From Candidatus Bathyarchaeia archaeon (lineage in GTDB: Archaea; Thermoproteota; Bathyarchaeia; Bathyarchaeales; Bathycorpusculaceae): a stretch of 64,000 nucleotides of DNA. The DNA lies in contig JBEKHN010000005.1 in the NCBI GenBank assembly GCA_050012255.1, forward strand, positions 32,001-96,000, given 5' to 3'. Position 1 is the stretch's first letter, and each line of letters begins with the position of its first letter. The notes below the pieces were generated by a model. That model was not told the origin of the DNA and made no database searches. It saw only the letters and a program-made list of their open reading frames with translations. The translations under genes and the position numbers were made by a program. This document shows positions 4,209 to 31,681 of this stretch, piece by piece.

Positions 4209-4303
4209 GGCGGAGAGTCTGTTGTAGACTTAAGAAACTGTTCATTGTGCTCAACTGTCACGCTGGTTTCTCGTTTCATCTGCTCTGTCGCCCTAGCGCG
4301 CGC

Positions 4304-4426
4304 CAGCTAAAACCGAGAATATCCTATCTTGATGAAAACGGCAAGTGCAGATCTTATGAGCCTGAGCCTGTGAGCGTCATAGTCAAGGAACTTGGGATGA
4401 AGGGTTGGCTCAAAGGAGAGAGATGA
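4304..4426 (+). pseudogene. 3'-terminal fragment of a paralog of the 27570-30860 TPR protein
   Basis: QLKPRISYLDENGKCRSYEPEPVSVIVKELGMKGWLKGER* vs SLKPTVLYLDENGKYKSHEPEPVLIVVRELGIKSWLKGER*; similarity starts immediately after GCGCGCGC (4296-4303). Confidence 0.88.
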
Positions 4427-4577
4427 TTTGCCAGCTAGTAGCGGGCGCTAGAGAACTCAACGACAAAGAGGCAATCGTGTCCTCGCTTGGACTCCGGCGG
4501 CAGATAATCCTTTGTATCCATGGCTAACAAACGCGGGGCTTTCCTGTGTTGTAGAACATAAAGCTATCACGGGGCGG

Positions 4578-5051
4578 TCAAACTATGAAGTATTTGGGGC
4601 AGAGCTCCATTTCTTTAGCCCAGAAAGACACCTGAAGGTCTTTGACGCCAGGTATTCTTGCGATGTCATCTCTCACCTTGATTAGGTGCTCGAAGCTCAT
4701 CACCACGCTGATAGCGAGCAAATCGTGGTCTCCGACACTTTTCGCAGCTACGATTATGTTAGGCATGCGAATCAGCCTGTCCAGGATCATTGATGAGTCA
4801 GGTGGATTGTTTTGACGCGGCAGGATGTGCGTAGGCGAGGTGTCGATCACAAACACGGCCATTGCTTGATATCCAATCTTCCTCGGGTCGATCACGATCG
4901 TGGACCCGCGAATCGCTCCCTCTCTCTGCAGCGTGGCGTATCTGTGCATCACCGTGTCAGGTGAGACACCGAGTTCCCTGGCAATCTTCCTGAAAGACAT
5001 GCGAGCATCCTCGGTGAGTTTATCAATTATGGCAAGGTCTGTTTTGTCCAA
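4578..5051 (-). CDS. Lrp/AsnC family transcriptional regulator
   Basis: MDKTDLAIIDKLTEDARMSFRKIARELGVSPDTV..R HTH plus a RAM-like C-terminal domain. Confidence 0.9.
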   Translation of the reverse strand: MDKTDLAIIDKLTEDARMSFRKIARELGVSPDTVMHRYATLQREGAIRGSTIVIDPRKIGYQAMAVFVIDTSPTHILPRQNNPPDSSMILDRLIRMPNIIVAAKSVGDHDLLAISVVMSFEHLIKVRDDIARIPGVKDLQVSFWAKEMELCPKYFIV

Positions 5052-5057
5052 TCCTTG

Positions 5058-5537
5058 TCACTTCTTCCTTAGCTGTTCGAATTCAAAGTTCTTTGGACAC
5101 AACAGTATCTCATCGACCCAGATGCTGGTGGCGACCTCCCTGACCATGGGATGTCCTTGTATCGACTCTTTGAGTTGCCCCAACCTGCCAACGTTTTCAA
5201 GTACTGCTATCGCGAATATGTTGTGTCTGCCCATAGATGGGCTGCAGAAAACTACTCCTGGCATCCTTTCGATAAAGTCCACGACATCCTCGACGTGAGG
5301 ATACTCGACGCGAATTCCAAAGCTCGCAACACAATCACAGCCAAAGCTCTTGGGGTTCAACAGTATCGTTGTCCCTCTGACAACACCGGCTCTCCTCAAC
5401 CTCCCAAACCTCTTGCTTATCGTATCCACAGACACCTTGCAACCCTTGGCAATGTCTGCAAAGTTCGTGCGCGCGTCTTCCTGCAAAGCTCGAATGATGT
5501 TAACGTCAATTTCGTCAATCTTCATTTTGGAAGCCAA
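5058..5537 (-). CDS. Lrp/AsnC family transcriptional regulator
   Basis: IDEIDVNIIRALQEDARTNFADIAKGCKVSVDTISKRF HTH; tandem with a paralog. Confidence 0.9.
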   Translation of the reverse strand: MASKMKIDEIDVNIIRALQEDARTNFADIAKGCKVSVDTISKRFGRLRRAGVVRGTTILLNPKSFGCDCVASFGIRVEYPHVEDVVDFIERMPGVVFCSPSMGRHNIFAIAVLENVGRLGQLKESIQGHPMVREVATSIWVDEILLCPKNFEFEQLRKK

Positions 5538-5578
5538 CTTACCTCCTCCTATCCGAAAAATACGCGTTCAAAGCTTTT

Positions 5579-5592
5579 AAATCATATGATTT
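5579..5592. promoter_or_regulatory. Perfect 14-bp palindrome in the divergent lrp/gdh intergenic region, candidate operator
   Basis: AAATCATATGATTT next to an AT-rich promoter-like stretch upstream of the first lrp. Confidence 0.4.
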
Positions 5593-5759
5593 GCCCCTTG
5601 AAATCTTACAGTGTCGAATGTCTCAAGAAGAAAAACGATTATCGCAGGCATTATCCGCAGGATATAACGAGATTATCTTACAATGCACGAATATTGAGCC
5701 TGAAATCGGACAAAATGTATAAATAGGGCCAAATGTGCTTAAAATATTGGGAGAGTAAA

Positions 5760-6083
5760 ATGAAACTAGAACAGATATTTCAAGAAATGAAAAGCAGAGA
5801 TTCAAGTGAGGAGCTGATAAAGAGAAGATACGCGTGCGCTAGCTGCGGAATAACTTGGACTGAGTTTGTAGGGATGGTCATCGGCCACAGAGACGGAAAG
5901 GAAGACCTGTGCCTTCGAATCGGAATGGAATCAGAAGCGTGCCAAGTGTGCAGATTGAAAGCCAGAGAGTGCCAAGAATGTGGTTCAAAAGATGTGTATG
6001 AGCTCAGGTTTGAAGAGGAAGTTTCCGAGGTCCCACTGAGCTTCAAAGGCATAAAAACGGTCGACAGAGGATCACGCGATTGA
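5760..6083 (+). CDS. Small Cys-rich (zinc-ribbon-like) hypothetical protein
   Basis: CASCG, CQVC, CQECGS motifs; co-oriented just upstream of gdh. Confidence 0.7.
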   Translation: MKLEQIFQEMKSRDSSEELIKRRYACASCGITWTEFVGMVIGHRDGKEDLCLRIGMESEACQVCRLKARECQECGSKDVYELRFEEEVSEVPLSFKGIKTVDRGSRD

Positions 6084-6122
6084 TGTGCTGTGAAATCGAG
6101 ATAATGTGGAGATGAAAAGAAT

Positions 6123-7907
6123 ATGTTAAGCTCGATACAGCTTTCAGGCCGAGAACTTGGAATGATAAAACTGATGGCAGAGTTTCTCTCTGAAAAACCT
6201 GAACTGACCGCAAAGATTGAAAGTTTCTCCACGGCTCATTATGCGTTGACAACGACGTATTCGGAGAACTTTGACGTCCCTGAAGCCGACGCTTGGAAGA
6301 TACTTGAGGAACTTGAGAGAAAAATCAATGAAGCGGAATACGTTCACGTAGAAGCACCTTATCCGGTTAAGAAATGGCATGCCATGTCTAGAGAAGAAAT
6401 CAACATGGTTCGCGTGCTCATCGACTACTTCTCTCCGAATCCCAGAATGACATCTGCGAGCGGTTTCGTCGCAAGCAGAACGGAATCAGTGATAGAGACT
6501 TACAAGTGGTTCTTTGGAACTTCTGAAGGAAACGGTGAAATGGCCAGAGAAAACTTCCGAAACCTCATTGAGAAAACTCAGACCGCTTTGTCGATCAGAA
6601 CGGAAACGCTTTCGCCCATAACGACGATGCCGAATCCCTACAAAGCCGTTCTGGAACTAATGCAAATCGCGGGAGAAAAACTGAAACTAGACCAGGGAAT
6701 CCACGAAATGCTCAAACGCCCAATGAGAACAATGATCGTCAATGTCCCAGTTGTGATGGACGACGGAAGCATGCGAGTGTTCACGGGCTACCGTGTACAG
6801 TACAACGACACCTTGGGTCCGACAAAAGGCGGCATAAGATATCACCCTGAACTGACACTTGAGGAGGTCATAGCGCTGTCTGCATGGATGACGCTGAAAA
6901 CTGCCGTCGTAGGACTGCCTCTTGGCGGCGGCAAAGGAGGAATACGCTGCAACCCGAAGGAAATGTCTTCCGGAGAGTTAGAAAGGCTAACGCGAGGTTA
7001 CACACGTGCATTGGCAAGATTCATCGGTCCATACTCTGACGTGCCCGCACCGGATGTTTACACGGACGCGCAAACGATGGCATGGATAATGGATGAGTAC
7101 AGTCAGATGATTGGGTGCAACGCTTTTGGCGTTGTGACAGGCAAACCGGTGTGCATAGGGGGCTCACTTGGAAGAATCGAAGCAACCTCCAGAGGAGTGA
7201 TGTACACTGTCGTCGAAGCTGCAAAGCATTTAGGTATGGAGCTCAAAGGAGCAACTGTTGCCGTTCAAGGGTTCGGAAACGTGGGCTACCATGCTGCAAA
7301 ATTGCTCCATGAACTTGGGTGCAGAATCGTGGCAATCTCTGATTCCAGAGGCGGGATTTACAGTCCAGATGGGTTAGACCCAACAAGAGTCTTAGAGCAC
7401 AAAAACGAAAGGGGATCCGTCATCGACTACGAGAACAGCAAAGGCCTGACCAATGGAGAACTTCTGGAATTGGAATGTGACATTCTTGTGCCGGCAGCAA
7501 TGGAAAACCAGATTACAGAGACGAATGCAGGCAAGATCAGATCGAAGATAGTGGCCGAAGGAGCAAATGGGCCCACAACACCTGAGGCGGACGAAATACT
7601 GTTCAGAAACGGCGTGTTCGTAATCCCAGACATCCTGGCAAATTCAGGCGGCGTAATTGTGAGCTACTTCGAACAGGTTCAGAACCAAATGAACTACTAC
7701 TGGTCGGAAGAAGAGGTACGCAGCAAACTGCAGAATATGATAGTCAACGCATTCAATGAAGTCTTAGCAGTTGCGGAGGAACACAAGGTCAACATGCGTA
7801 TTGCAGCCTACATGAACGCTCTGAAAAGAATCGCTGACGCAATGCTTGTCCGCAAGCAGAATCCCTTTTTACCGATCACGAGTCCACAGAGAATAAGTAC
7901 CAAATAA
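6123..7907 (+). CDS. gdhA: Glu/Leu/Phe/Val dehydrogenase (glutamate dehydrogenase-like) with a ~170-aa N-terminal extension
   Basis: GPTKGGIRYHP, WMTLK, LPLGGGKGG, VPAPDV, VQGFGNVG, EGANGP, PDILANSGGVIVSYFE; core starts near residue 170. Confidence 0.9.
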   Translation: MLSSIQLSGRELGMIKLMAEFLSEKPELTAKIESFSTAHYALTTTYSENFDVPEADAWKILEELERKINEAEYVHVEAPYPVKKWHAMSREEINMVRVLIDYFSPNPRMTSASGFVASRTESVIETYKWFFGTSEGNGEMARENFRNLIEKTQTALSIRTETLSPITTMPNPYKAVLELMQIAGEKLKLDQGIHEMLKRPMRTMIVNVPVVMDDGSMRVFTGYRVQYNDTLGPTKGGIRYHPELTLEEVIALSAWMTLKTAVVGLPLGGGKGGIRCNPKEMSSGELERLTRGYTRALARFIGPYSDVPAPDVYTDAQTMAWIMDEYSQMIGCNAFGVVTGKPVCIGGSLGRIEATSRGVMYTVVEAAKHLGMELKGATVAVQGFGNVGYHAAKLLHELGCRIVAISDSRGGIYSPDGLDPTRVLEHKNERGSVIDYENSKGLTNGELLELECDILVPAAMENQITETNAGKIRSKIVAEGANGPTTPEADEILFRNGVFVIPDILANSGGVIVSYFEQVQNQMNYYWSEEEVRSKLQNMIVNAFNEVLAVAEEHKVNMRIAAYMNALKRIADAMLVRKQNPFLPITSPQRISTK

Positions 7908-8009
7908 GTCAGCTCCCCCCCTTTTCCCTTTCCTTCTACGGAGCCAGTCAGAATGTTCGTAACGTATCCCAGACAAGACTTAAAACAGAAAGCACCCGTC
8001 TCAAAATGG

Positions 8010-8789
8010 TCAGCGCATCAGCTCTTCCACGAGTCTGGCCACGTTGTCCACGACGTAACTGTTTATCATCCGTCCCTTCCTCCGCGACGCCGCTGTCGGG
8101 TCGCCGATCACACCGCTCGGAAAATAGCGCTGCGCATCCGCGACTATCTCGAACCTCGGCAGCTCCGGAAAACTCTTCCTACCCCTCATCTTAACCAAAT
8201 CAGGCCTGATGGCCATAACCCTCGAAGTCTCAATCGCTCCAGCATGACCATCCTTCTCGCTGAAATACTTCCCCCTCAACTCATAAGCAAAGTCATAATC
8301 CGAACACACCATAATCCGACACCTCTTCTCCGCACTGTCGCCCTGATGACACCAAACAACCTCCTGCGCTGCAAGTCTGAGCGCAGCCATGTGAGCCTGA
8401 CCAGCGTGACCGCTCAAAACGAGAATCCTCCTGAAACCGTTGCGAACAAACTCCTCAAGAACGTCTCGAACAACCCTGTGCAACGACTCAAACCCAATCG
8501 AAATCGTCCCCGGAAAACCCCGCGTCGAATCGCAGACACCGTACCTCAAAGGCGGCGCAACCAGACACCGTGTCCTCTTGGCAACCTCCAACGCCACAAA
8601 CTCAGGCTGCACACTGTCAGTACACAGGGGCAAGTGAGCCCCATGCTCCTCAACACTTCCAACAGGAACAATGACCACCCCACGTTTCCGAGCACTCTTC
8701 TCAGCTTCTCTCATGCTCAACTCATCAAACCACAAACTCTGTCTCTCCTCTGACCGAGCACCACCAACGCCGCTTCCCATCACCTTCAA
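8010..8789 (-). CDS. Creatininase family amidohydrolase
   Basis: PVGSVEEHGAHLPLCTD, FPGTIS, SGHAG, DGHAGAIETS, SGVIGDP. Confidence 0.9.
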   Translation of the reverse strand: MKVMGSGVGGARSEERQSLWFDELSMREAEKSARKRGVVIVPVGSVEEHGAHLPLCTDSVQPEFVALEVAKRTRCLVAPPLRYGVCDSTRGFPGTISIGFESLHRVVRDVLEEFVRNGFRRILVLSGHAGQAHMAALRLAAQEVVWCHQGDSAEKRCRIMVCSDYDFAYELRGKYFSEKDGHAGAIETSRVMAIRPDLVKMRGRKSFPELPRFEIVADAQRYFPSGVIGDPTAASRRKGRMINSYVVDNVARLVEELMR

Positions 8790-9059
8790 ACGTCAACCCC
8801 CGCTTGGCCGTTCCAGAAACAAGTCAACAGCTGCGCTTATAAGCCTCTGAGCAGAGGCACTTCAACTCATGCACACTTTTTCTCAAAAAACAACAGGACG
8901 GCCAGAGCTGTTGGCCGACGCGCAGCTGAGCATACCAAGTCTCCACGTTTGACTTTGGCGAGCCTTCTCGAGCAACTGACTTACACGTGTATGTGTGTAG
9001 ATCAGGCAGGCAGAAAGGTTTATTACGACTCCAGATATGGGTAAAGCTCGGCGAAAAAA

Positions 9060-9503
9060 ATGGCAATGCAAAAAATGGTTGTCGGAACCGCTGTAGCAGT
9101 GGTCGTTGTGCTGATGATGACAAGCGTTCTAGCTCTTCTTCAGTCCAACCGGACTCTTCTGACCAGCGGAACAGTCAGAACGGTCAACGTTGGCGTGTAC
9201 AGTGACCCCGCCTGCACTCAACCAGCTTCTTCCATCGATTGGGGAACAATAAACCCTGGAACATCAACGGTGAAAACAGTCTATGTGAAAAACGAAGGAG
9301 CAGTGACCCTGAGCCTGAACATGACGAGCAACACTTGGACCCCGTCGAACTGTCCAACCTACATGACTTTGACTTGGAACGAGGAGAACGCGTCAGTCGC
9401 CGTCGGAAATCACGTTCAAGCTGACTTCAATCTCACCGTCTTACCGAACATCACCGGAATAGGCGCCTTCAGCTTCGACATAGTCGTAACCGGAACAGGA
9501 TAA
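9060..9503 (+). CDS. Secreted small beta-sandwich protein (possible fibre/surface subunit)
   Basis: Hydrophobic signal, then TSGTVRTVNVGVYSDPACT..SIDWGTINPG..VYVKNEG; Thr/Asn-rich; ends in a beta strand with no anchor. Confidence 0.7.
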   Translation: MAMQKMVVGTAVAVVVVLMMTSVLALLQSNRTLLTSGTVRTVNVGVYSDPACTQPASSIDWGTINPGTSTVKTVYVKNEGAVTLSLNMTSNTWTPSNCPTYMTLTWNEENASVAVGNHVQADFNLTVLPNITGIGAFSFDIVVTGTG

Positions 9504-9661
9504 GAAAACACGCACTCAACGAGCGCACCTGCAGGGCAAGCGTTCCAATTTCTCTTTTTCAAACTTACCAAACGCACACTGTGCAGTACTGAAGCTCCGC
9601 CGTGTCGGACAGCAGCCAAGCCTGTTTTGTTGGCAAAGTTGTCACCGGTTAGCGAGCATGG

Positions 9662-10366
9662 ATGGTGGCAAAGAATTTAAATACGGGCCCAGACAAACAC
9701 GGGTTCTCTGTTACGAGGAGAGAAGCCTTGGAGGCCAGGAAGAAAATATTCTTGATACTTTTTTCAACCATGTTTCTTCTGGGCACGTCTGCAACTCTGT
9801 TTCGGCCGATTTTCGCATCTGAAACGCTGATTTGGGAGGCATACGTGCCCTCCACAGGGTCAAACGTTACGACAAACGTTACGTTGCTTCAGGGAAATCA
9901 ATATCGCATCGTAGCGTCAGACAGGTGGTGGTACAGCATGCCGAACGAAAGCAACCTGGCGGCTGACGCGCAGTACTACACGACCGACTGGAACGACTCT
10001 TGGAACTGGGGAAACTACTTCAAAAATGACAGTCACTCGTTTCTGCAGATCAACGGGAATGACATGAACTGGGGGCCGTTTAGCAACGGGGACACAAACC
10101 ACACGTATACTATCCTCTACACCGGTCAGGGAGCACCAATCACATTCAGAATCTTCGACTGGATTGACGAAAACTACGCGAATAACCAGTGCAAACTACA
10201 CGTAAGAATCTATGAGGAGGTCACTGTCGGAGGACACATAGTGGACTTCAACCCGCTCGACACGATGCCCTTGTGGACATTAGGCTCCCTTGCCGTTGCC
10301 TTGTCTATCGTAGTTTCCCTCGTATATCGTAGCAAGGTCGGTCGCGGACGCTCCGCACTTTCATGA
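9662..10366 (+). CDS. Exported surface protein with C-terminal VGG motif + TM anchor
   Basis: N-terminal hydrophobic segment, many NxS/T sequons, VTVGGHIV..PLWTLGSLAVALSIVVSLVYRSK. Confidence 0.72.
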   Translation: MVAKNLNTGPDKHGFSVTRREALEARKKIFLILFSTMFLLGTSATLFRPIFASETLIWEAYVPSTGSNVTTNVTLLQGNQYRIVASDRWWYSMPNESNLAADAQYYTTDWNDSWNWGNYFKNDSHSFLQINGNDMNWGPFSNGDTNHTYTILYTGQGAPITFRIFDWIDENYANNQCKLHVRIYEEVTVGGHIVDFNPLDTMPLWTLGSLAVALSIVVSLVYRSKVGRGRSALS

Positions 10367-10399
10367 CAAGGACAAAGCGTTCAACACAACGTAGCGTGT

Positions 10400-10942
10400 C
10401 TAGTCAAGCTTGGGAGGCTTCACGTTCTTTCTTTTGACGAAAAAGAGTCCAAGCGCTAGGATGCCCAATGAGAGACCAACGAACGGTGCAGGCTCAGGAA
10501 CCTTGTTGCTGGGAATCGTGAACACTCCTGCTCGCTGCTGATTTGCTGGATACGTGCAGCCAGGCGAATCAAGGTTCTCTGCGCATGTCCACCTAAACTG
10601 GTAATACCCGACGTTTGACAAGACATATGACGCCTTGTTTGTGTAGCCATCGTTTACCACGCCGGTGAAGAGATTTCCAACGAACGTGAGCGAGCTGGGG
10701 TCTAGGCCATAGTATTCGTCGAGGGATGCAGATGCCCTCGCCTTCGTCGTTGGGTCTCCGTAACTGATGATGACGGTGACGACCGTGCCGACGGGTACAG
10801 CCTTGTTTACGATGCTGGTGCCGCCTGAGTCTTGCACGTCGATGGACTCTTGCAGGTTTGCTTTAACCACGCTTGCGGCGCCGAAGATTAGCATTAATGC
10901 AAAAACTGCGGCAAGAATGGCGACATGATTTTTTGCACTCAT
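10400..10942 (-). CDS. Exported protein with PEP-CTERM-like sorting signal
   Basis: Signal peptide; C-term VPEPAPFVGLSLGILALGLFFVKRK (motif-TM-basic). Confidence 0.78.
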   Translation of the reverse strand: MSAKNHVAILAAVFALMLIFGAASVVKANLQESIDVQDSGGTSIVNKAVPVGTVVTVIISYGDPTTKARASASLDEYYGLDPSSLTFVGNLFTGVVNDGYTNKASYVLSNVGYYQFRWTCAENLDSPGCTYPANQQRAGVFTIPSNKVPEPAPFVGLSLGILALGLFFVKRKNVKPPKLD

Positions 10943-11057
10943 CGTTCAGGCCTTCTCCATCTGTCTTTTTGGGCTTCCCGATTTATATGCATGTAAGGAA
11001 TAATCCTATAGAGGGTTTTTATAGAGTTGTCGGAAACGTGGCAGTCCAATATGAGGT

Positions 11058-11274: not shown

Positions 11275-12018
11275 CTAACCTTCTTTGAAGTTGAAGGAGA
11301 CTTCGATAGTTTGAACGTCTGGCGAAGTGTTTATGGACTCGATCAGAGTCGGTTTGCCCGTGGCCTTTCCTAGTGCGGATGCTACGGCGCTGACGAGAGG
11401 GCATCCTAGAAGTCGCACGCTTCTTGGGCCTTCTTCAACGTAGAGATTCTTGAAGACCGAGTCTGATGTTTTCAGGATGACCCGGTGATCCTCTGTTTTC
11501 ATCTCGATTTCCTTTGCGAGCTGAAAGTTTTCCAGAATGATCTGTGGTAGGCTGGCGCACAAGTCTTCGAGGCTAATCTTCGTCAGGTCTGTTCTCAACA
11601 TCCTTTCAAACTGGTCCACAAGGCCTGATCCGGGCGCAGTTATGCATATTCCTCTGGGTTTTTTCGTCATAAACTTGCTGCTCGCAATCTCTTCAACCGA
11701 TGGCGGACCTGAGTTGACGTCGGCGGATATGAACACGATCGATTCTTTGAGGCCTTTTAAGTGTTCAGGCAGATAAACATCTTTTGGGTATGGCGGTACG
11801 TAGAGGCCCTTTCCTTCGTAGTTCAAGTCTTTGATTATTCTGTCGATCGTTGAATACAGCGTGACAGACGTTATGCCTAGGATGCTGCCTCTAACATAGG
11901 CGATGGGTCTGACCAAGAAGAAGAGGGCTCCCCACAGACAGGAATAATAGGACCGCCCTAAACACTCGCCAGCACAGGTCTGCTCTAATCCTCCACCCCA
12001 CCATTCTTCATAATCCAA
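11275..12018 (-). CDS. Hypothetical protein (V4R-like C-terminus), probably 5'-truncated or chimeric
   Basis: Plausible protein from WGALFFLVRP (~11935) onward, including LLGCPLVSAVASALGKATGKP; the first ~28 codons look non-native. Confidence 0.6.
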   Translation of the reverse strand: MDYEEWWGGGLEQTCAGECLGRSYYSCLWGALFFLVRPIAYVRGSILGITSVTLYSTIDRIIKDLNYEGKGLYVPPYPKDVYLPEHLKGLKESIVFISADVNSGPPSVEEIASSKFMTKKPRGICITAPGSGLVDQFERMLRTDLTKISLEDLCASLPQIILENFQLAKEIEMKTEDHRVILKTSDSVFKNLYVEEGPRSVRLLGCPLVSAVASALGKATGKPTLIESINTSPDVQTIEVSFNFKEG

Positions 12019-20650: not shown

Positions 20651-20830
20651 AGCTTGAACCGCGCAGAGTTCCAGGATCCCAAAAAACCATAAACCCTAGA
20701 CACGAGCAATTGTCCTTCCACCCCTAATAAAAGCGCACGCGGATTTGTGAACGTGCCAAGGGGCTCTCAACGCGGGCCGGCCGGGCGCGCGCGGTTCATG
20801 CGACCGATGGTCGTCTTCACTTGATAGTTA

Positions 20831-21049
20831 GTTACAAAACTGTACGCGGATTTTATTGAATTCGCGTTTATTCATAAACAAAGAAAATGATGGGGATTTG
20901 TGCGTTTGTAAGTGATTTTCCGTTCTCACTTCTTTACGGGCTTTTTCTTCTTTCCTTTTGCGGCTTTGGGCACTATTTTGGCCTCAAATACAATTATCGC
21001 GTTTTTTTATTTAAATTTATGGTTGGTTACAAAACTGTGCGCTGATTTT
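20831..21049 (+). repeat. 24-bp direct repeat pair
   Basis: GTTACAAAACTGTACGCGGATTTT (20831-20854) vs GTTACAAAACTGTGCGCTGATTTT (21026-21049), 2 mismatches. Confidence 0.8.
20926..20973 (-). CDS. Candidate 15-aa lysine-rich micropeptide
   Basis: GTG-start MPKAAKGKKKKPVKK*, GAGG and an AT-rich promoter-like tract upstream; lies between the 24-bp repeats. Confidence 0.4.
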   Translation of the reverse strand: MPKAAKGKKKKPVKK

Positions 21050-21411
21050 TGTTGGGTTGCGAGGTTTCTGGTATCTTGTCGAATAGTACTTGTTTGAAGT
21101 GTTCTATGTTGCGTTCTATCATGTTGAGGGATGCCTGAGCGTTTTCCTTTGAGTCTTTGCAGCTCTGAAGAAGCCATGTTTTGAAAAGGTCGTATAATCT
21201 GCTGGTAAATAGGTATTGTAGGCTGTTTTCGTAACTCTTTTTCGGTTCAAGGATACACTGAACTGCAAGCTTGAGTCCGTAGAGGTCGGCAAGTGTCAGG
21301 ATATTCGTTACGTACATTGTTTGTTCGTCTAAGGGAAAGGACTTGAAACGTTTTTTGTTTTCCAGAGTGTGCAAGAGCATCTGTCTAGTCTCGAGGCTTT
21401 GCTTAAGATTC
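21027..21411 (-). pseudogene. Probable C-terminal gene fragment, family unknown
   Basis: Frame is open (NLKQSLETRQMLLHT...) right up to the TAG inside the GCGCGCTAG motif at 21412-21419. Confidence 0.45.
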
Positions 21412-21729
21412 TAGCGCGCATGCCTGTTCCCAAATTCGTTTGCAGAGTATCTTGTGCTTCCGGCTTTACTCCGCCTATGGACAGTGATGGACGTCGGGAT
21501 ACGACGAGCATCGTTCAGAAGGCGCAAATCAACTCTATCACACTTAAAAATAGGAATTTAGGAACACGCTAGCGCGCGCTATGGCGATTGGGGGTGTTTC
21601 AGTCATTAACCACACTTTGAAGTCTTTCGATCAGAACCATTTCTATCCATTCGTGCGAAGGATTCCGTGCTATAACATTTCTTTCTGCGTAGCCTCTGCC
21701 AAGGCTTAGATTCAGCCAAGCTTGTAGTC

Positions 21730-24700: not shown

Positions 24701-25086
24701 GCTTCAGGATCGCCAGTCTTGTTAACATAGTGGTCAGCGCCCAGACTCCACGCCTTAACAGCAACTTCCTCTCTTCCTTTTCCAGTGAACATGATAAATG
24801 GGATAGTGTTTCCGTTCTTTCTCAGCATTTCCAGAAATTCAAGCCCATCTTTCCCAGGCATCTGATAGTCCGAAACGACCGCGTCATAATGCTCTTTCTG
24901 AAGCTTCGCTAACGCTTCTTCAACTGAACTCGCGGCGTCCACTTGGAATAGGCCCTGCAACTCCAAACATTGCTTCGCAACCTTCAGCAAAGCAGGCTCG
25001 TCGTCAACATGCAAGACACGAATCTTCGACTTCTCTGTGGAATCGACAACTATCTCGGCATGTGACTGAACAACAGATTCAACCAT
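21730..25086 (-). CDS. Hybrid sensor: receiver + six PAS domains + histidine kinase
   Basis: VLHVDDE..VSDYQMPGKDG..FTGKG (REC); six segments ending in xDITERK-like motifs; RHDVRN H-box; YEDDGVGI, GKGSGYGL. Confidence 0.94.
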   Translation of the reverse strand: MVESVVQSHAEIVVDSTEKSKIRVLHVDDEPALLKVAKQCLELQGLFQVDAASSVEEALAKLQKEHYDAVVSDYQMPGKDGLEFLEMLRKNGNTIPFIMFTGKGREEVAVKAWSLGADHYVNKTGDPEAVYCELAHCLRSTVEKHSAEAQMKETVQKLRTIYQNAVEGISYVDAEENIVYANKAFADIVGYEQDQLAGMNLHKIVDDENWAKIENETQRRRQGEASRYEAVFRRSDGTVRNALISGAPFFDHDGRFAGTVGIVLDITETKKNESESSDRQRRLQSLFDASPNAILVIDLNGKIVECNGRAQEIFGYSSRSESVGRSALEPIAEEDRQRAMENMEKVLKQGLMRSIEYTIIANDGSRRALSVSASVLRDISGNPIGFVSAIEDITERKKSEELLRESEERFRGLFESIQDPVGIFVGREGRLIDYNAAFKKSSGYTDEELKGKAFLDFVHPDDRAMVLEKYQTKYSEEELPLVYEIRGMNKKGESIPLELSVSTYKQKGKVIGIEVIHRDITERKKAEQTLKESEEKYRNLIELAPDGIVAVNAEGIVTSANRSFLRLVGYDSDEGIVGKPFTELKTIPVEDIPKFQEMLSSLMNGEPLSPVEFLYVRKDGTSRWAEVHPGLLIEDGKPVGVQVVMRDVSERKNAEKLIQENQEKFEQLFMSNPEAAVYVDPNERVLNVNPRFTELFGYSFDEVKEKFLDDFVVPEDRRKEALMLAQRGKEGYVYYETVRKNKKGSPIPVALSSAPIVLQGQHLGDIVLYKDITELKRAQEESEESRKHFQMLFDLMADPVAVVDGRGKILEVTQKVEEITGFKKEELVGKNLLKVEMFGARTKAVMIKNLAERMMGVHVEPYEVEMLKKDGGKLVYEINAAKIDYKGKPADLVVFRDILERKNLEEKLRVVGSLTRHDVRNKLCAVTGNAYLLRRKLAGNPEALEQLADMENAVRNVEAIFEFARTYEKLGVEQLVNMNVGKAVDEAASLFPDLKGIRITNECGGLTVLADSLLRQLFYNLIDDSLKYGEKLTQIRVRYEEFEDKLKLIYEDDGVGISRDAKSKLFTEGFTTGKGSGYGLYLIRRMMEVYGWTISETGTHGKGAQFTINIPKAKPDGR

Positions 25087-25278
25087 GCAAATCACACTTT
25101 ACACTAGTCCACTACACGCACGTGCACCTGTGACGTTGTTTTGAATGTCCTTCTCCTGATTAAACACTTATGAACACAAAATCAATACTCAATGGCAACC
25201 CCTCCAAAACCACACAAACACTCAACACAAGACCAACATTCAGCCGTAAAAGCGCGCGTGCAAAGCGTTCAAAACGAA

Positions 25279-25309
25279 GACGAGAGTTCGAATCTCTCCC
25301 GGGCTACCA
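25279..25309 (+). tRNA. tRNA 3'-half fragment (probably tRNA-Gln); att-like scar, not a complete gene
   Basis: GAC GAGAG TTCGAAT CTCTC CCGGGCT A CCA = T-arm + 3' acceptor strand + CCA; no 5' half upstream; CCGGGCT-A fits the A1-U72 pair of archaeal tRNA-Gln. Confidence 0.78.
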
Positions 25310-25719
25310 CTCTCGAGTTTGATTATACTAAATTCTGCTGAGAGGTTTCGCTCATTTCCCCTCTTTTTCTGTTTCTAGGAGACGATCATCCTTGAATGAG
25401 TGTAAAGTCGTTCTTGTTTTCAGAAGGTATGAAGAGTTTTGGAGGTTCTGTTTTTCAGAGTGCAGAGATTTCAAGCTCGGTTGTGCTAAGTCTTGCAAGT
25501 TTAGGAAGGCTCTTGTTATCTCCCATGCTGATCGATCCAGCTACTTCTTGCCGTTAATTCATAATACTTGTCGATGGAGAGATGAGCAGCGCGCGCTACC
25601 AAAAAAACAACCTGCAATAAATCTATTGCTATCCTGTGTTTCTCTGTTCTTTAGCTCTTTCAGCTTGACTAGAGCCTTTTCTTTGAGGGGCAATCTGGAT
25701 TTCTGCGATATTTGAAGAA

Positions 25720-25875
25720 CTAAGTTATACTTGTTCCTGTTTTCTCTCTACAATACCAACAATAGCCTTCTTCATCCATATTATAGTCTTTACATTTTGG
25801 ACAAAGTCTTCCTTGTCTTGATTCTTCAAGAAATCGTTTTCTTGGTTCTTTCGAAGTTTTTTTCTCTTCACTCAT
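25720..25875 (-). CDS. Small zinc-ribbon protein
   Basis: MSEEKK..LCPKCKDYNMDEEGYCWYCREK; GAGGT upstream of the ATG. Confidence 0.62.
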   Translation of the reverse strand: MSEEKKTSKEPRKRFLEESRQGRLCPKCKDYNMDEEGYCWYCREKTGTSIT

Positions 25876-25916
25876 TTTTAAACCTCTAGTTTGTCTTCTG
25901 TTTACGCGCAGATAAT

Positions 25917-26100
25917 GCGCGCGCCGTGAAAGACAATGATTCACCCGTCCTCTCCTTGTAATTATGCATATACTCACGGGCCTTAGTCACGTCAAGCTCA
26001 ATCAACCCGTAGACCCGATTCTTCACTGCCATGTTATCCAGCATCTCAATACCCCAACCGCGATTCTTCCTTACTTCCCGAAAAGTCCCTATGTAATCCA
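25917..26100 (-). pseudogene. N-terminal fragment of a 2-oxo-acid dehydrogenase E2 catalytic-domain-like protein
   Basis: Manual translation IEMLDNMAVKNRVYGLIELDVTKAREYMHNYKERTGESLSFTA; the E2-type ExDVT..LSFTA pattern stops exactly at GCGCGCGC. Confidence 0.68.
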
Positions 26101-26319
26101 GCTCTCATCCCAACCCAAGACTATTCGCAGATACTATTTGTCAACCTTGGCAGTAAAAGACCTTGCGCAACATAATCTAAGCGCGCGCTACAATGTTGAG
26201 ACAGCACTGCAGAATATCAGACATAATCAAGGGTGGCGTTGTCAGGTGGCTACCTCATGAAGAGGCTTGAGAGAACTAAGAGACTAAAGAGAGATAGACT
26301 ATTGCGCTAATCTCGCGCG

Positions 26320-26451
26320 CTATTTCTTACCTTTATCATATTCTGCAGGGAGTTCAACACTCCGTTTCTCTTTCCTTTTCAGTTCCTTCTCTCTCTGCAA
26401 TTTCATGTGGCGTTTATGATCCATAGCTTTCTCTTTCTTGCCTTTGGGCAC
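26320..26451 (-). CDS. Small basic protein (43 aa)
   Basis: MPKGKKEKAMDHKRHMKLQREKELKRKEKRSVELPAEYDKGKK*; SD GGAGGGTGA; the TAG stop overlaps TAGCGCGCG. Confidence 0.62.
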   Translation of the reverse strand: MPKGKKEKAMDHKRHMKLQREKELKRKEKRSVELPAEYDKGKK

Positions 26452-26667
26452 AATTCACCCTCCTTAAGATTAGACTATGCTCTCACGTCTATTAAAATTG
26501 CGCGTGCTTTGCCGTAGTAGAAACTGATGGATCGATCGATCAATGATAGTAGTGGTTGAACAATGATATCGTATCAGAGAGGTTTGCAAAGAACAAAGAG
26601 ATTGAAAAGAGATTAGTCGTAGTGTGCTCGATAGAGCACGTTAAGAATGAATGTGAGATAAATGGAA

Positions 26668-26754
26668 CTATTTCTTTAATCGCTTTTCCTTGTGTTTTTT
26701 CCTTTTCTCTTCTCGTTCTTTCTTAGTCATCGGTTTATTCTTGGCGCTTCCCAT
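26668..26754 (-). CDS. Small basic protein (28 aa)
   Basis: MGSAKNKPMTKKEREEKRKKHKEKRLKK*; GGTGA and AAAAACCTTATT promoter-like sequence upstream. Confidence 0.55.
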   Translation of the reverse strand: MGSAKNKPMTKKEREEKRKKHKEKRLKK

Positions 26755-26892
26755 ACTCAATGCAATCACCACTGAAGAATGGTTAGAACAATGAATAAGG
26801 TTTTTGCACATAAAGAACTAAGAGGTTAGAAAGAGGTAGGCAGTTTTGAGCTCGAAGAGCTCGCTGAGCCATCAAATAGTATGTTCATGAAG

Positions 26893-27471
26893 CTATGTTT
26901 CAGATTTCTGGGGCTGCGGAAAGTTTTGTCTCAGGTATTGACAATACTTGTCTTCTATGCGGTCATAATACCCAAGTTCCCAGTGTGTTGGGCTCATCAA
27001 CCCGTACTCAGTACAGCCAAGCATCCATGACATCACATGGGCAATTTCAACTCTCTCACTGGAACCAAAATAGTCGTCCTTCAGCATCTCTATGACCAAA
27101 CCACTCATCTTGCTGAGAAGACTACAGAATTCTGGAAACTTGTCGACACCCGACTTGGATATTCTTTTTTCGGTGCCCCAAGCAACATATTTGTTCAACG
27201 GGTTCTGTGAGTCAGGATTGACTGCGAACTTGTCGGGAACAAGAAGTCCGAGTTTGTAGTTCATCTTGCTCTGAACAACTTCGCGGCACTTCTTTTCTGT
27301 CAACACGCGAAAGCTGACAACAACCTCGTCTTCAACACGATCTCTGATCAAAAAGTGAACACTCTTAACCCCTACAAGGTCTACCACAAAACCGTAGAAT
27401 TCAAGAAGAACACTTCTGACATTCTCTGGTGCACATTTGAAAACTGCTACAGACCAATCATCATCTGGCAT
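26893..27471 (-). CDS. Hypothetical protein, distant resemblance to the lantibiotic-dehydratase C-terminal domain
   Basis: 192 aa; WSVAVF..HFLIRD..VSFRV and IAHVMSWMLG patterns. Confidence 0.65.
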   Translation of the reverse strand: MPDDDWSVAVFKCAPENVRSVLLEFYGFVVDLVGVKSVHFLIRDRVEDEVVVSFRVLTEKKCREVVQSKMNYKLGLLVPDKFAVNPDSQNPLNKYVAWGTEKRISKSGVDKFPEFCSLLSKMSGLVIEMLKDDYFGSSERVEIAHVMSWMLGCTEYGLMSPTHWELGYYDRIEDKYCQYLRQNFPQPQKSET

Positions 27472-27569
27472 AGCAACCACATTTTCGTGTATTCTTCTTC
27501 TGTTCCTCTTATATGAAACTCAAGTATGATGGCAAGCGCGGGCTACAAGGTTTCCGCAAAACTAGCAGA

Positions 27570-30500
27570 TCATCTTTCCCCTTTCAGCCAGCTCTTTATT
27601 CCAAGTTCTCTCACAACAATCAGTACAGGTTCAGGTTCGTGTGACTTGTACTTGCCATTCTCGTCCAAGTACAGCACTGTTGGCTTCAGTGAAAACATAC
27701 CTTGTACCGTCGGCTTAAGGGTAATTCTTATTTCTTCTGTCTTAAGTGGGTCAAGTCTCTTTCCTTTCAGGTTGATGTAGCTGTCCTCTACTCGACAGGT
27801 TTCGGGTTTTTCTGTCAGCTCGAAACCTTTTGGGATGATTTCCGTGATCTTTGTCAAGAGGGCAGCGCCCTTCCCGGAATTCACAAGTTCGATCTCTATC
27901 TCAAGGTTTTCGCCAACCTTCAGGTCCCTTTGACGGATTATCAGGTTTGCTTGTATGTCTGCATGCTCAAACCTTTCTAATCCAACTGCTTCTTCGTGCG
28001 AAGGCGTTGGAACTGACATGCTGGCGGTGCTGGAGGCAACAGCTGGCGCTACCAAAACTTTGTCAAGGGATAGTGCAAATTCACGTTTTTCCTTAACTCT
28101 CTCGAGGGTTCTGAGAACGTCGCTGGCTTTTTTGGTGTATCCTGCTTTATTGAACAGCTTGGCCGAACGATCTAAATACCCTTCAACCAGCCCATAGAAC
28201 TTCGTTTTGTCTTTGTGATCAGCTTCAGTTTCAGCTTTGCCCATGTAGAAGTAGGCGTCAAACAAAGCCTCAGTCGCGCTGACCCAGGTGGAGGCATTTC
28301 CGAATCCAGCATCCATGTAATAGTCGGAGGCGCTCTCCATGTAGTGTTTGGCTTCATAATAGAGGATCACATTTCTTGTCGACTTGTAATTCGCGCCCAG
28401 CTCAAGTGCTTTGCATATGCTGGAGTTGCCGGCCGCGAACATGGCAGTCCTCTTTTTCACGCTGCTTTCTTTGGCCTTTGCAAACAGTAGAGATGCTTCC
28501 GCATAAAGGCTCGCGTCGGCCATTTCATCAGCAACGCTCATCTTTTGCCAAGCTTGACACATATAAATCATTGAATAAAGCTCCTTAACTTCAGCTTCAA
28601 TTTCCATCGTTTGGACAATCTTCTCCAGCTCTCTTGCTGCAAGCGCATATTTTTCTCCGCTCAATGCGCAGTCTCCGGAGGCGTAAAGGTTCTTGGCCTC
28701 CTCGATGAGGACTCTCGTAAGACAATAGTCTTCTCTCAGATTGGAAGCCTTAATCAGTTTGAATGCCAATTCTTTTTCATCCAAGCCTGCAATCTCATTG
28801 CGTTTTGTTTCAATAGATTTTCTGGCTTGACGGAAAAGTCTAGCTGCTTCTTCGAAAGCATGAATGCATTCTTGGCTTTGATCGTTCCTACTCAGGCCTT
28901 CCGCTTGTTCAAGACAAGCCCACGCTGAGTAGTTCGGAGCTATGTAGATCCATGATTTCGATGAGTTGAGATATGCAGCTGCTCTCTCGTAGTTGTCTTT
29001 GGACTTACCAAACTCCTCTCTTTCGTGGTTGTATTTTGCTCTCTCAATGCAACTCCAAGCCTGCATGTACGTCACATAATCCGCGTAAAAACTACTAAGT
29101 TGAGGAGTGTTGTGAGCGCCAAGCGTGAACTGCTTTGAGGCAGACTCAAAGTTGTTTGCAGATTCCAAGTATTCACCAAGACGATCATAGATCACAGCAG
29201 TCTGCCAGTAAGCTTCAGCGACCCTAGTAGGGAGATCTGCATTCTTGTTAAGCTGAACAGCGCTTTGATAGGTTTCTACTAGTTTCTTCAGGATTTCTTT
29301 TTCCGCGGTGGTCTGGTAGAGTTGGTTCAATATGCTTCCCAATTCCGTCTCAAAACTTCCCAGTAGTGCGAAGAGTTCTCTACGTGAAGGATAGGAAGCT
29401 ACGTGCTTTTCGAAGAGTCCTATGCAAGTTTCCATGTTAGAAACCGCCTTTTCAAGGAGCTCTTTTCTGTTCTCTTTTGTTTCCTCTAATCTGCTAAGTT
29501 CAAGCAGGATAAGTGCAAGTGCTTCGTAAGGAAGAGATCGGGGCAACGCATACTGAGGACGCAGTTGCTCTGTATAGTGAACGGCTTTCTCTCCAAGTGT
29601 CATAGCCTCAACCAGTAGCTCTCTTTTCTCAGCCCCCGTTCTTAGAGTTGACAAGTCATAGAGGGCATGCGACAGTTCAGATGAACTGTGAAAAATCGCA
29701 TGTGTTGAACCTATGCGTTGTGCATATTCAAGGCCATTCTTCCCTAGATTTACGGCTTTCTTAAGTAATTCATGTCTTGCTTCCAATTCCGTCTCTATAC
29801 TTGCTAGTTCTCTAAGATTCGCGACGTATCCATACCCATAAGAATGAAAGATCCCGGGACTGTAATTAGCAGGAACACTGTAGGCGATGGCTTTGCCAGC
29901 ATACTCCTCACATTTCGCTGATGTTTCTTTTATTTCCTCTAGGTTTTCTTTCCAGGTCAGACTCCATGCCGTTGAAAATGCCAAACCGTCAAACGCCCCA
30001 GACATAATACGGTAATCGTTTACTTTGCTGCAATATTGGAGTGCTTTGTTGAAGAGGCTTGATCCCACTTCCACTCCAGCGCCAAGATCATTCTCAGCAA
30101 ATCCTAAACAAACAGTTGATTTGGCTAGAAGGTAGGTGTCACCGATTTTTTCCGAGATTCTGATTGCTTCTTTCACATATTCGAATGCCCTCTGCTCGCA
30201 TTCCTTTCTTTTCGTTTCCAACCGTAGAGACATGGCGGCGTCAACGCAGTTAATGCTTGTTACGTGATATGCTCTCGCGAGTTCGTGCTCATCATCCGCC
30301 TCAGAGAATATTCGTATCGCTCTCTCCCCGAGGCTTATTGCCTCGTCCAGTATGTTCTCCCTCATCTGCATGTCCAGTTCTAGGTCCAATCGATCAGATA
30401 GGATGCAAGCTAGTCTGGTGCAGGTCTTCCCCAACTCGAGTTGGTCTCTTTTTTCATGATAGACTTTCAAGACTTCCCTCTCAATCCTGCAGCCTTCATC

Positions 30501-30860
30501 AAGTAGCGTTTTCTTTTCAGACCCTTCTGATGCAAGCCAATAGCCCATGTAAGCAATCATTGCATCGCAACGCAAAATACGAGGTGTCTTTTCTGACTCA
30601 TTCAGTCTTCCATGAAGTTCCTTAGCCTTCTCATAGCTTAGAATAGCCTGACGCAATCTTTCTCTAAACTCATCATTACTTTCAGCCTGAAATGCAGAGC
30701 GGTAAGAAGCATGACCTGACCGCTCATAAATCTCCGCTATCTTCGAGAAATCATCTTGGGGCAGCAGATTCAGTGCTTTCTCATACGACTCGGCAGCTCC
30801 AGACCAATCATATTCCCTCTCTAGTCGTTCTGCCTGATGCAGAATTTCCTCCACACTCAA
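27570..30860 (-). CDS. Large TPR-like helical-repeat protein with a C-terminal Ig-like domain
   Basis: 1096 aa of Ala/Glu/Tyr-rich helical repeats (AAESYEKAL..); C-term LVNSGKGAALL..IIPKGF..YLDENG. Confidence 0.85.
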   Translation of the reverse strand: MSVEEILHQAERLEREYDWSGAAESYEKALNLLPQDDFSKIAEIYERSGHASYRSAFQAESNDEFRERLRQAILSYEKAKELHGRLNESEKTPRILRCDAMIAYMGYWLASEGSEKKTLLDEGCRIEREVLKVYHEKRDQLELGKTCTRLACILSDRLDLELDMQMRENILDEAISLGERAIRIFSEADDEHELARAYHVTSINCVDAAMSLRLETKRKECEQRAFEYVKEAIRISEKIGDTYLLAKSTVCLGFAENDLGAGVEVGSSLFNKALQYCSKVNDYRIMSGAFDGLAFSTAWSLTWKENLEEIKETSAKCEEYAGKAIAYSVPANYSPGIFHSYGYGYVANLRELASIETELEARHELLKKAVNLGKNGLEYAQRIGSTHAIFHSSSELSHALYDLSTLRTGAEKRELLVEAMTLGEKAVHYTEQLRPQYALPRSLPYEALALILLELSRLEETKENRKELLEKAVSNMETCIGLFEKHVASYPSRRELFALLGSFETELGSILNQLYQTTAEKEILKKLVETYQSAVQLNKNADLPTRVAEAYWQTAVIYDRLGEYLESANNFESASKQFTLGAHNTPQLSSFYADYVTYMQAWSCIERAKYNHEREEFGKSKDNYERAAAYLNSSKSWIYIAPNYSAWACLEQAEGLSRNDQSQECIHAFEEAARLFRQARKSIETKRNEIAGLDEKELAFKLIKASNLREDYCLTRVLIEEAKNLYASGDCALSGEKYALAARELEKIVQTMEIEAEVKELYSMIYMCQAWQKMSVADEMADASLYAEASLLFAKAKESSVKKRTAMFAAGNSSICKALELGANYKSTRNVILYYEAKHYMESASDYYMDAGFGNASTWVSATEALFDAYFYMGKAETEADHKDKTKFYGLVEGYLDRSAKLFNKAGYTKKASDVLRTLERVKEKREFALSLDKVLVAPAVASSTASMSVPTPSHEEAVGLERFEHADIQANLIIRQRDLKVGENLEIEIELVNSGKGAALLTKITEIIPKGFELTEKPETCRVEDSYINLKGKRLDPLKTEEIRITLKPTVQGMFSLKPTVLYLDENGKYKSHEPEPVLIVVRELGIKSWLKGER

Positions 30861-31144
30861 CGCCTCTGATAACAGTAAACCATTAGAAGTTTAAGAACAA
30901 GTATCTGAAAAGTCTTTTCATGAATGAAGCACTCGATGGATACGGAGCGATTTTCAGTTTTGCGGATGGTTTTGCGACGTAGATTTCCGCGCGCGCTACA
31001 GACAGACACAGAAAACCAACAAAAAACAAAACAAGAGATGAAGGCTGTTCAATGGAGAAATATCTGACAATGAGTTTCAGAGATTACGTTTGAAAGTATG
31101 CCTATTATTCTTGGACTGTTGCACGCTTTTTTTGTGTGGCGCGC

Positions 31145-31249
31145 GCTACGGTTCGAGAAGTGGTTCTGATACCATGCTCATACTGCGGCGGGCTCATGCC
31201 CCAAACTTCCCTCTTCTGTCCAAACTGTGGAGCAAGAAGAAGAGCCTGA
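31145..31249 (+). pseudogene. C-terminal zinc-ribbon fragment
   Basis: ATVREVVLIPCSYCGGLMPQTSLFCPNCGARRRA* starts within GCGCGCGCTA (31139-31148); no convincing N-terminal part upstream. Confidence 0.7.
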
Positions 31250-31530
31250 CGAACTGTATCAACATTCCATGAACATTTTCAAAACCCTGAAAACCCCATA
31301 TACAGCATACTGCGCTGACCAGCACCTGAACGGGTTTAGGCTTCTAGGGAATTGAACCCAAAAGGAGGCGGGCTCAAATCTCGTATAATCCTACGGCTTT
31401 GGATTTGGGCAAAAATCTGTACGCGCGCTTTCACATATATTCAGATTGTCCAACACGGGTTCTATGCCGATCCAGCCAAGAATTCATAAGGAATTGGCAA
31501 TTGAAGGGTTACATGAAACAAGGCATCTTG

Positions 31531-31681
31531 GCGCGCGCACAGGCATCTTGAGAACACCGACGTAATCGGTCTTTCCATAATGCAAATCGCGGAGCCCATC
31601 AAGATTCGAAATGCCTACGGCTTTGAAACTTGTTTTCCTTGCTTCTTCTTTCACGTTCTCGGTCAATGTCACGATTGGCAC
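31531..31681 (-). pseudogene. N-terminal fragment of an epoxyqueuosine-reductase-like Fe-S protein
   Basis: LTENVKEEARKTSFKAVGIS..P resembles LTGKVKDFVKKKGATLVGVA..P of the intact 39603-40364 protein; resemblance ends at GCGCGCGC 31531-31538. Confidence 0.62.

Follow-up and report, generated by a model that had tools for sequence, protein, structure and literature searches.

Repeated sites at which DNA is inserted, exchanged or joined are known from several systems, the closest of which frame the subject of this article: an 8-bp palindrome, GCGCGCGC, that recurs at the break points of truncated genes and at other junctions in a 64,000-nucleotide stretch of a Candidatus Bathyarchaeia archaeon (positions 32001–96000 of contig C5 of genome G000, an assembly of 2.35 Mb in 38 contigs; the whole stretch is hereafter called the window). 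With HIP1 (GCGATCGC) of cyanobacteria the motif shares the character of a lineage-limited, GC-rich 8-bp palindrome occurring hundreds of times above chance and possibly linked to cytosine methylation; indeed, GCGCGCGC is present in 434 copies in G000, as opposed to 8–20 copies of each of four other G+C-only 8-mers. HIP1, however, resides both within and between genes and is retained between relatives, whereas here 87% of the tracts lie outside genes (50 of 393 being inside), only one of 78 is conserved in a sister genome, and the tracts stand at the edges of homology.

Integron cassette arrays offer a second parallel, consisting of units of one or a few genes bracketed by a repeated site, with relatives carrying different cassettes at one and the same position and cassette loss leaving a single site. 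Yet attC sites are structured, ~60–140 bp long, and require the IntI integrase, whereas in the present case there are no structured attC-type sites of at least 60 bp, nothing is conserved past 10 bp, the units contain truncated genes and the sites are scattered over the genome. CRISPR loci and casposons likewise take up arbitrary DNA at a palindromic site that is then found on both sides, giving rise to local site–insert–site arrays; the site described here is only 8 bp long, the inserts have no period and vary in size between 25 bp and several kb, so that instead of the regular repeats of at least 23 bp and the uniform spacers of a CRISPR array there are 8–10-bp tracts spaced from 25 bp to >10 kb apart. 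Three Cas1 hits were recorded. The insertion of an IS5-like insertion sequence and of its miniature inverted-repeat transposable elements (MITEs) into the palindrome recalls IS1397 in the repetitive extragenic palindromic (REP) units of bacterial interspersed mosaic elements (BIMEs), a parallel that covers the MITEs but not the motif; in fact, REP units are conserved imperfect palindromes of 20–40 bp, whereas one base per side is conserved around the motif. Finally, bacterial-type end joining by Ku and LigD joins unrelated ends, captures fragments, deletes flanks and duplicates 5′ overhangs, and the archaeon encodes together Ku, a LigD primase-polymerase and an ATP-dependent ligase with phosphoesterase; known Ku/LigD junction additions, on the other hand, are short and are not one fixed word. 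The titles and abstract openings returned by full-text searching contain no account of the motif or of such junctions.

The reading that we favor, to which we tentatively give a probability of about 0.4, is that GCGCGCGC, or more fully A-GCGCGCGC-T, is a lineage-specific, reusable seam at which chromosomal DNA in this genus undergoes repeated breakage and rejoining. By insertion or exchange the palindrome would take up segments whatever their origin, gene pieces among them, with sizes from ~50 bp to several kb, and each segment would end up with a copy of the motif on each side, while neighboring DNA would be deleted up to the motif and loss of the segment between two copies would leave one copy behind. 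The underlying event could be a staggered break, made symmetrically at the palindrome, or the addition of the same short tail to both ends, followed by fill-in and ligation through the Ku, LigD-polymerase and ligase-phosphoesterase operon, whereby the motif would be duplicated or created at each junction; since this operon is present, sealing is probably by end joining.

Gene fragments that break at the motif

The original prediction held that four gene fragments of the window break exactly at the motif, and this is borne out: all four are truncated genes whose homology to intact relatives ends 0–5 nt from GCGCGCGC. Fragment 1 (4304–4426, plus strand) consists of the last ~40 codons of a member of a family of large paralogous proteins, an intact copy of which is encoded at 27570–30860 on the minus strand. 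In tblastn it matches the last 39–40 residues of four large paralogs with 61–69% identity, including window 27573–27689, and its homology begins at nt 4304–4307, the motif tract (4296–4303) ending at 4303 and forming the seam between this fragment and a 24-copy repeat (4081–4287). The segment 4304–4440, which holds the fragment, has the motif on one side and a decayed copy, GCGGGCGCTA (4441–4450), on the other, the latter lying 12 nt inside the right edge of a window-specific block. The tetratricopeptide-repeat (“TPR”) label proposed for the paralog family finds no support from Pfam.

Fragment 2 (25925–26098, minus strand) covers the beginning of a gene for a 2-oxoacid_dh protein (E2 catalytic domain), namely the 5′ region and 58 initial codons, in agreement with its predicted nature of an E2-like N-terminus; over 56 residues it is 71% identical to residues 4–59 of an intact 265-residue 2-oxoacid_dh protein (G000 C13:59166–59963). 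The nucleotide homology boundary falls 1 nt from the motif tract (25917–25924), where the intact gene reads CACAGGGTGG, without GCGC. This tract is the seam between the fragment and a small zinc-ribbon gene module whose homology ends at 25913, and the 256-bp segment that holds the fragment (25925–26180) has a motif copy on each side. The tract at 31139–31146 marks the start of fragment 3 (31147–31252, plus strand), which corresponds to the C-terminal ~30 residues, a zinc ribbon as anticipated, of a 212-residue Arrestin_N/Spo0M-like plus zinc-ribbon protein intact in the sister genome G001, the homology beginning 1–5 nt past the motif. Fragment 4 (31541–31681, minus strand), which ends at the tract 31531–31538, represents the first ~47 codons of a QueG-like Fer4_16 iron-sulfur protein, which is intact in genome G007 with 262 residues and to whose N-terminus it is 56% identical; nucleotide identity to genome G009 is 74%, and the homology ends 2–3 nt short of the motif. 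This last tract is flanked by a 10-bp direct repeat, AGGCATCTTG (31521–31530 and 31541–31550), with “ac” between repeat and motif on one side, the longest such repeat among the 393 tracts of the genome and no general feature of them. A Pfam search with the bare fragments 2 and 4 gave no match, their identity being derived from the intact relatives.

Other parts of the prediction fared less well. Fragment 1 can indeed be checked against a homolog within the window, as had been stated for both fragments 1 and 4, but fragment 4 has none there and is not similar to the 357-residue iron-sulfur protein encoded at 45299–46372. Two unassigned open reading frame (ORF) pieces (21027–21411 and 48000–48380), thought to behave like the fragments, adjoin the GCGCGC termini of MITE copies and not the 8-mer; the former, 119 residues of which match a paralog at 40% identity, may be an intact small gene. 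Joining or deletion at the motif is supported, whereas partial GCG matches within genes find no general support as secondary sites: GCGC is missing from the break in the intact relatives of fragments 2 and 3, that of fragment 4 has GC only, and such matches are found at a 1057-bp deletion described below, with CGC and GCGC at its two edges in G000. The seam reading, if it holds, would account for the origin of the gene fragments found in these genomes.

Homology edges throughout the genome and between sister genomes

The coincidence of the motif with edges of homology extends well beyond the four fragments. Within the window, at least one homology edge lies no more than 5 nt from 11 of the 13 motif tracts, namely those at 4296, 20785, 21572 (a MITE end), 25917, 26181, 30989, 31139, 31531, 35862, 39645 and 45182. 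Genome-wide, 800-bp intervals centered on 320 noncoding tracts were compared with the rest of G000, 960 random noncoding positions serving as controls: non-self homology ended within 8 nt at 68 of the 320 tracts versus 62 of the 960 controls, and homology spanned 9 tracts versus 104 controls. Only four of the 68 tracts are next to a MITE end, and the partner sequences, which include genes, two tRNA-like ends and repeat families, mostly continue without the motif. As to the tRNA-like sequences (G000 C15:35083 and C14:62527), one motif follows directly upon a CCA end and another cuts a T-arm.

Sister genome G001 is a single contig of 2,346,764 bases, 92–97% identical to G000 in most syntenic blocks; its first 400 kb were compared, 57% of which align to G000 at 85% identity or more. 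The tracts turn over rapidly: of the 78 found in this part of G001 one is conserved in G000, two are spanned by homology without the motif, 16 are at breaks, 32 lack any match within 300 bp and 27 have matches that stop short of the tract. The motif is almost confined to lineage-specific noncoding DNA, the aligned blocks holding 40% of the non-ORF bases but only 3 of the 63 noncoding G001 tracts. A block edge lies within 12 nt of 14 of the 78 tracts, as compared with an expectation of 2.8 and no more than 9 in any of 200 draws. Furthermore, among the 140 edges of 35 collinear insertions or deletions of at least 50 bp, an exact motif is found within 15 nt at 11 (7.9% versus 2.0% at noncoding controls) and a motif with at most one mismatch at 23 (16.4% versus 4.6%), so that 18 of the 35 events have a motif-like edge.

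Individual loci reveal that the same seam is re-used with different neighbors. At the window tract 45182–45189 G000 has a single motif between two blocks (A-GCGCGCGC-B), whereas G001 has A-ACGCGCAT-1471 bp-GCACGCGC-B, with two genes in the 1471 bp, and G007, which stands farthest from the other two (89.7% and 89.2% identity versus 91.9% between G000 and G001), carries no motif and, between identical A and B edges, an unrelated segment of 2396 bp. At 378.6 kb of G001 the order is GCGCGC-MITE-aCGCGCGC-390 bp-GCGCGCGCG, nothing of which is present in G000, while in G007 the right edge is the same and bears a decayed AGCACGTGCG, with different DNA leftward. These two loci favor the duplication of an existing palindromic target. 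On the other hand, at 370828 of G001 the 9-mer CGCGCGCGC replaces 1057 bp, that is, most of a 394-residue cohesin-domain gene intact in G000 (edges CGC and GCGC), a C-terminal fragment of which remains and ends at the motif; the segments 201836–202455 (618 bp) and 339440–341087 (1646 bp) of G001 have the motif at both ends, their place in G000 being taken by other, motif-free DNA; and at 332091 of G001 a different palindrome, GGCGCGCC (cgGGCGCGCCa), replaces 795 bp with no motif at the G000 edges. These loci indicate that the writing of seams at new breaks, or a two-step path, also occurs. The insertions are accompanied by target deletions of 5 bp to 2 kb. In a 13-kb island found only in G001, which contains radical-SAM/B12 genes, an ABC transporter gene and an insertion sequence remnant, 12 tracts lie between almost all genes. 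The preceding A is about as frequent on segment-facing (52 of 84) as on outward-facing sides (51 of 84), an equality that fits a symmetric process, be it duplication or scar formation. Joining or deletion at the motif, originally proposed from the four fragments, is therefore supported genome-wide, against the sister genome and at the 1057-bp deletion.

Form and placement of the motif

In the window GCGCGCGC has 15 matches in 13 tracts (two of which are 10-mers), as against 0.99 expected and never more than 4 in 100 shuffles. The 393 alternating-GC tracts of at least 8 nt in G000 comprise 201 of 8 nt, 123 of 9 nt, 63 of 10 nt and 6 of 11 nt or more, a distribution that is a bump and not the tail of a microsatellite. 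Among the 176 tracts that are exactly GCGCGCGC, A precedes and T follows in 64% each, giving the consensus A-GCGCGCGC-T, and past this one base per side no conservation was found. The flanks are unique for 379 of the 393 tracts and held in common with another tract for 14; a larger hidden repeat around the motif is ruled out by these counts and by the single conserved base per side. The tracts cluster, 93 of 360 neighbor gaps measuring 25–400 bp versus ~22 expected, and the spacings, from 25 bp to >10 kb, show no mode and no preferred value.

Coding and noncoding labels come from a crude in-house caller based on ORFs and codon usage (2151 genes, 80.7% coding) and not from a standard gene finder; according to it 343 tracts are outside and 50 inside genes. 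Noncoding variants of the motif with one internal base changed include 209 transitions versus 105 transversions, an excess that fits a fast decay of its CpG steps. A C5 cytosine methyltransferase is encoded at G000 C7:4847–5941 (locus L060, 1417–2511) and a second gene of this kind lies on C6; either could bear on this decay. The best solved relative of the former is M.HhaI (E 1.5e-57), but the match spans the catalytic half only and allows no inference of site specificity. In the window Rfam yielded nothing at gathering score, nor anything at E up to 1 in 3950–4500, and no tRNA was found.

The IS5-like element and its MITEs

An IS5/IS1182-type element at G000 C24:15247–16332 encodes a transposase with a DDE_Tnp_1 domain (PF01609, 8.4e-12) preceded by an N-terminal DUF772 (PF05598, 1.1e-09). 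Its frame is broken by a frameshift, and it is the sole copy in G000 detected by tblastn. The same terminal inverted repeats, AGCGCGC[AT][TA]GCnTGTTCCyAAATTC, delimit the MITE copy at 21409–21580 of the window, at whose right end the 8-mer tract 21572–21579 is located; a second copy occupies 48384–48586 and has ~30 relatives in the genome. Altogether G000 contains ~48 short elements, with inverted end pairs 118–327 bp apart and ends (T)AGCGCGC[AT][TA]GCnTGTTCCTAAATTC, which to judge from their sequence qualify as MITEs, being noncoding, multi-copy and provided with the ends of an autonomous element.

The IS5-like element and the MITEs use the motif as a target and are not its source. This follows from the MITE found inside a motif at the 378.6-kb locus and from the decoupling of motif hits and MITE ends across the genus: 434 and 92, respectively, in G000, 464 and 61 in G001, 417 and 29 in G007 and 277 and 21 in G003, as opposed to 359 and 2 in G009, 254 and 1 in G008 and 128 and 1 in G004. 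One MITE is flanked by 6 alternating-GC bases on one side and 7 on the other, the palindromic nature of the target masking any duplication. At G000 C10:59505–60751 (locus L046) ends of the MITE/IS type surround a passenger Methyltransf_11 gene with no transposase inside. A second MITE-like family, with ends AGCGCGCTGGCTTGTCCCTAAATTCGC, occurs at G000 C2:95435, C1:159575, C3:116593, C12:11218, C34:2790 and elsewhere; it contains a 9-mer motif and, after this, GTATATGCAAAAC repeats in tandem.

Distribution of the motif and of Ku-LigD

Motif hits number 29–464 in ten other genomes of the genus, 0–14 in eight genomes of other genera of the family and, among 12 further genomes of the order, 53 in one (G024) and 0–6 in the rest; the enrichment is thus confined to the genus plus one other genome. 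The operon at G000 C10:11503–14467 (locus L062), of bacterial type in an archaeon, places a LigD primase-polymerase (PF21686), Ku (PF02735) and a ligase with phosphoesterase (PF01068, PF04679 and PF13298) next to one another. Ku is found in 8 of 11 genomes of the genus, the three without a match being 65–89% complete, and in 1 of 20 other relatives.

That the junctions are real is indicated by contigs assembled from runs of three other studies, run X1 having been excluded as a possible source and stretches without contig cover having been left uninterpreted. Five junctions of the window, those at 25589 (X11), 25917 (X2 and X3) and 30989, 31139 and 31531 (X3), are bridged by such independent contigs, which speaks against the possibility, named beforehand, that they are chimeras. 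The X3 contig has an extra GC at 25917, and in one X2 contig the motif connects the fragment-4 side with other DNA.

Possible origins of the motif

Several explanations compete with the reusable seam. Breaks could occur anywhere, the motif being a de novo scar written by end joining as self-complementary GC filler (for instance 4 nt per end), always an outcome and at no time a target. The absence of GCGC from the break in the intact relatives of fragments 2 and 3, the seams that replace gene-internal DNA, the cgGGCGCGCCa that takes the place of 795 bp in a genome whose intact counterpart has no motif at the edges, the symmetric flanks and the nearly genus-specific presence, in this sample, of the Ku/LigD primase-polymerase operon all speak for such a scar. 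It accounts poorly, however, for the identical A and B edges with three different contents in three genomes and for a motif that stays at one edge while its neighbor changes; nor is a sharp length distribution obviously expected of untemplated tailing, and we know of no polymerase that writes this word. On balance this explanation appears unlikely. A lower likelihood still attaches to short-end transposable cassettes, in which a transposase acting in trans would mobilize any segment between two 8–10-bp palindromes, gene fragments arising from landings in genes whose ends are later re-paired. Motif–segment–motif units where the sister genome has no motif, the motif copies separating almost every gene of the 13-kb island and the MITE-ended element with its methyltransferase passenger would suit this explanation, but the unique flanks of 379 of the 393 tracts mean that the units are not multi-copy, the insertions remove 5 bp to 2 kb of the target and lack flanking duplications, and the only transposase candidate is the IS5-like one, whose ends reach ~25 bp past the motif.

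Could the tracts be footprints left upon excision of the IS5-like element and the MITEs, whose termini begin with (TA)GCGCGC? Besides these termini, a G001 MITE allelic with tGCGCACGCta in G000 is in keeping with this idea, which is nonetheless largely refuted and very improbable: copy numbers do not track the MITE family (e.g., 359 versus 2 in G009), for which reason a MITE footprint was rejected as the source of the motif, one MITE lies within a motif and adjoins 6 alternating-GC bases at one end and 7 at the other, and 75 of the 78 G001 tracts are outside contiguous conserved DNA, unlike the footprints of elements that visit and leave. No more credible is the idea that selection maintains the motif as a site of regulation or protein binding, be it a promoter, a terminator or a nucleoid element, and that its relation to break points is only coincidental. 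Although 343 of the 393 tracts are outside gene calls, their density is similar whether the spacers are tandem (0.72 per kb), divergent (0.61 per kb) or convergent (0.85 per kb), and the 393 tracts display no preferred distance from the starts or stops of our gene calls, so that promoters and terminators were discarded; moreover, only 1 of 78 tracts is conserved in a 92–97% identical genome, the motif decays by transitions and homology ends within a few nt of it. Assembly chimeras at a low-complexity word, finally, may be regarded as practically negligible: the assembly does consist of 38 contigs, several of which end in MITEs, but independent contigs bridge the junctions, a one-contig sister genome has the same pattern and all ten other genomes of the genus are enriched.

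The reusable seam has itself to face a number of adverse observations. Genome G016 has Ku and yet 7 motif hits, whereas G024 has 53 hits and no Ku, and the correlation between Ku and the motif is one with a clade whose members are not independent; no enzyme tied to the motif was found. Direct repeats flanking the tracts are distributed as at 4000 random positions, bar five cases of 8–10 bp, so that a target-site duplication around the motif had to be rejected as a general feature. The comparison of tract fates involves one sister genome, and 17 of its 35 insertions or deletions have no motif-like edge; polarity by outgroup is available at two loci only. Several motif-bracketed insertions have no motif at the site in the other genome and, together with the GGCGCGCC seam at 332091, imply that not every event began at a pre-existing site.

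As a whole, the observations point to a form of cutting and pasting of DNA hitherto undescribed. A more specific proposal, which we consider doubtful, is that of a dedicated, self-propagating stitching in which Ku/LigD and an activity that breaks or tails DNA specifically at the palindrome would paste arbitrary fragments, leaving a GCGCGCGC seam on each side, every seam becoming the next site. If true, such stitching would be an unprogrammed, genome-wide counterpart of repeat-spacer acquisition, driving the rapid, cassette-like turnover of accessory genes observed between sister genomes. Should the seam reading hold, about half of the structural differences between two close archaeal genomes would bear the signature of one word, and a mechanism of gene gain, loss and fragmentation would be legible from sequence. 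The 10-bp site and the rare archaeal Ku-LigD operon would give a handle on homology-free DNA integration in archaea, and in this group's metagenome-assembled genomes the motif could serve to mark DNA of recent acquisition. Practical use might likewise be made of an activity able to write or cut one fixed palindrome of 8 bp and to ligate whatever DNA to it.

Other tracts and modules of the window

The window-specific block that ends near fragment 1 is a mosaic of 2.07 kb (2394–4463) replacing 111 bp of G001 and G007, its left edge being at CACGCGCTA (2386–2394). It includes the window copy of the 24-copy repeat, a family of ~200–250 bp (other copies in G000 are, e.g., at C13:13200–13340 and C22:20665–20866) with a sharp end (CGCTACATCCCTGTATTCGCG...), after which come a C-rich run and TAGGGTACTAGTACTGCAC, the window copy lacking the first 11 nt; the family is also present in G001, G007 and G010 and has no match in Rfam.

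Between 20 and 49 kb of the window, single-gene modules (an Lhr-type helicase, PAS histidine kinases and others) are located between motif copies. Synteny with G001 stops at 20784–20785, where the tract 20785–20792 begins and where G001 runs on with a tRNA-like GGTTCGAGTCC in place of the motif. The tract 25589–25596 has no homology edge within 10 nt, the nearest being 74 nt away. Past the tract 26181–26188 a 650-bp module of G007, G008 and G009 begins at 26190; in three sediment or peat runs this module (26190–26841) reaches a summed contig depth of hundreds to thousands, as compared with ~5–10 for neighboring genes, and is preceded by other sequence, and it is probably a widespread multi-copy element. 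At the tract 30989–30996 the homology upstream of a 1096-residue gene ends (30985–30990).

A block common to G001 and G007 begins at 35864/35874, at the 10-mer tract 35862–35871, and ends at a decayed motif, AGCGCGTGC (36404–36412), which is also the left edge of a 3.2-kb cassette specific to G000 (36413–39644, minus strand). This cassette holds a type IIG restriction-modification gene (36474–39581) with Eco57I, N6_Mtase and TaqI_C domains and is closed on the other side by the 10-mer 39645–39654, synteny with G001 and G007 beginning at 39657. At the tract 48763–48770 homology to a paralogous locus on contig C20 stops at 48754, 8 nt short of the motif. Lastly, at 11934/11935, in or next to the ORF 11275–12018, synteny with G001 leaps from ~32,168 to 2,323,665 on the circular map, a distance of ~55 kb.

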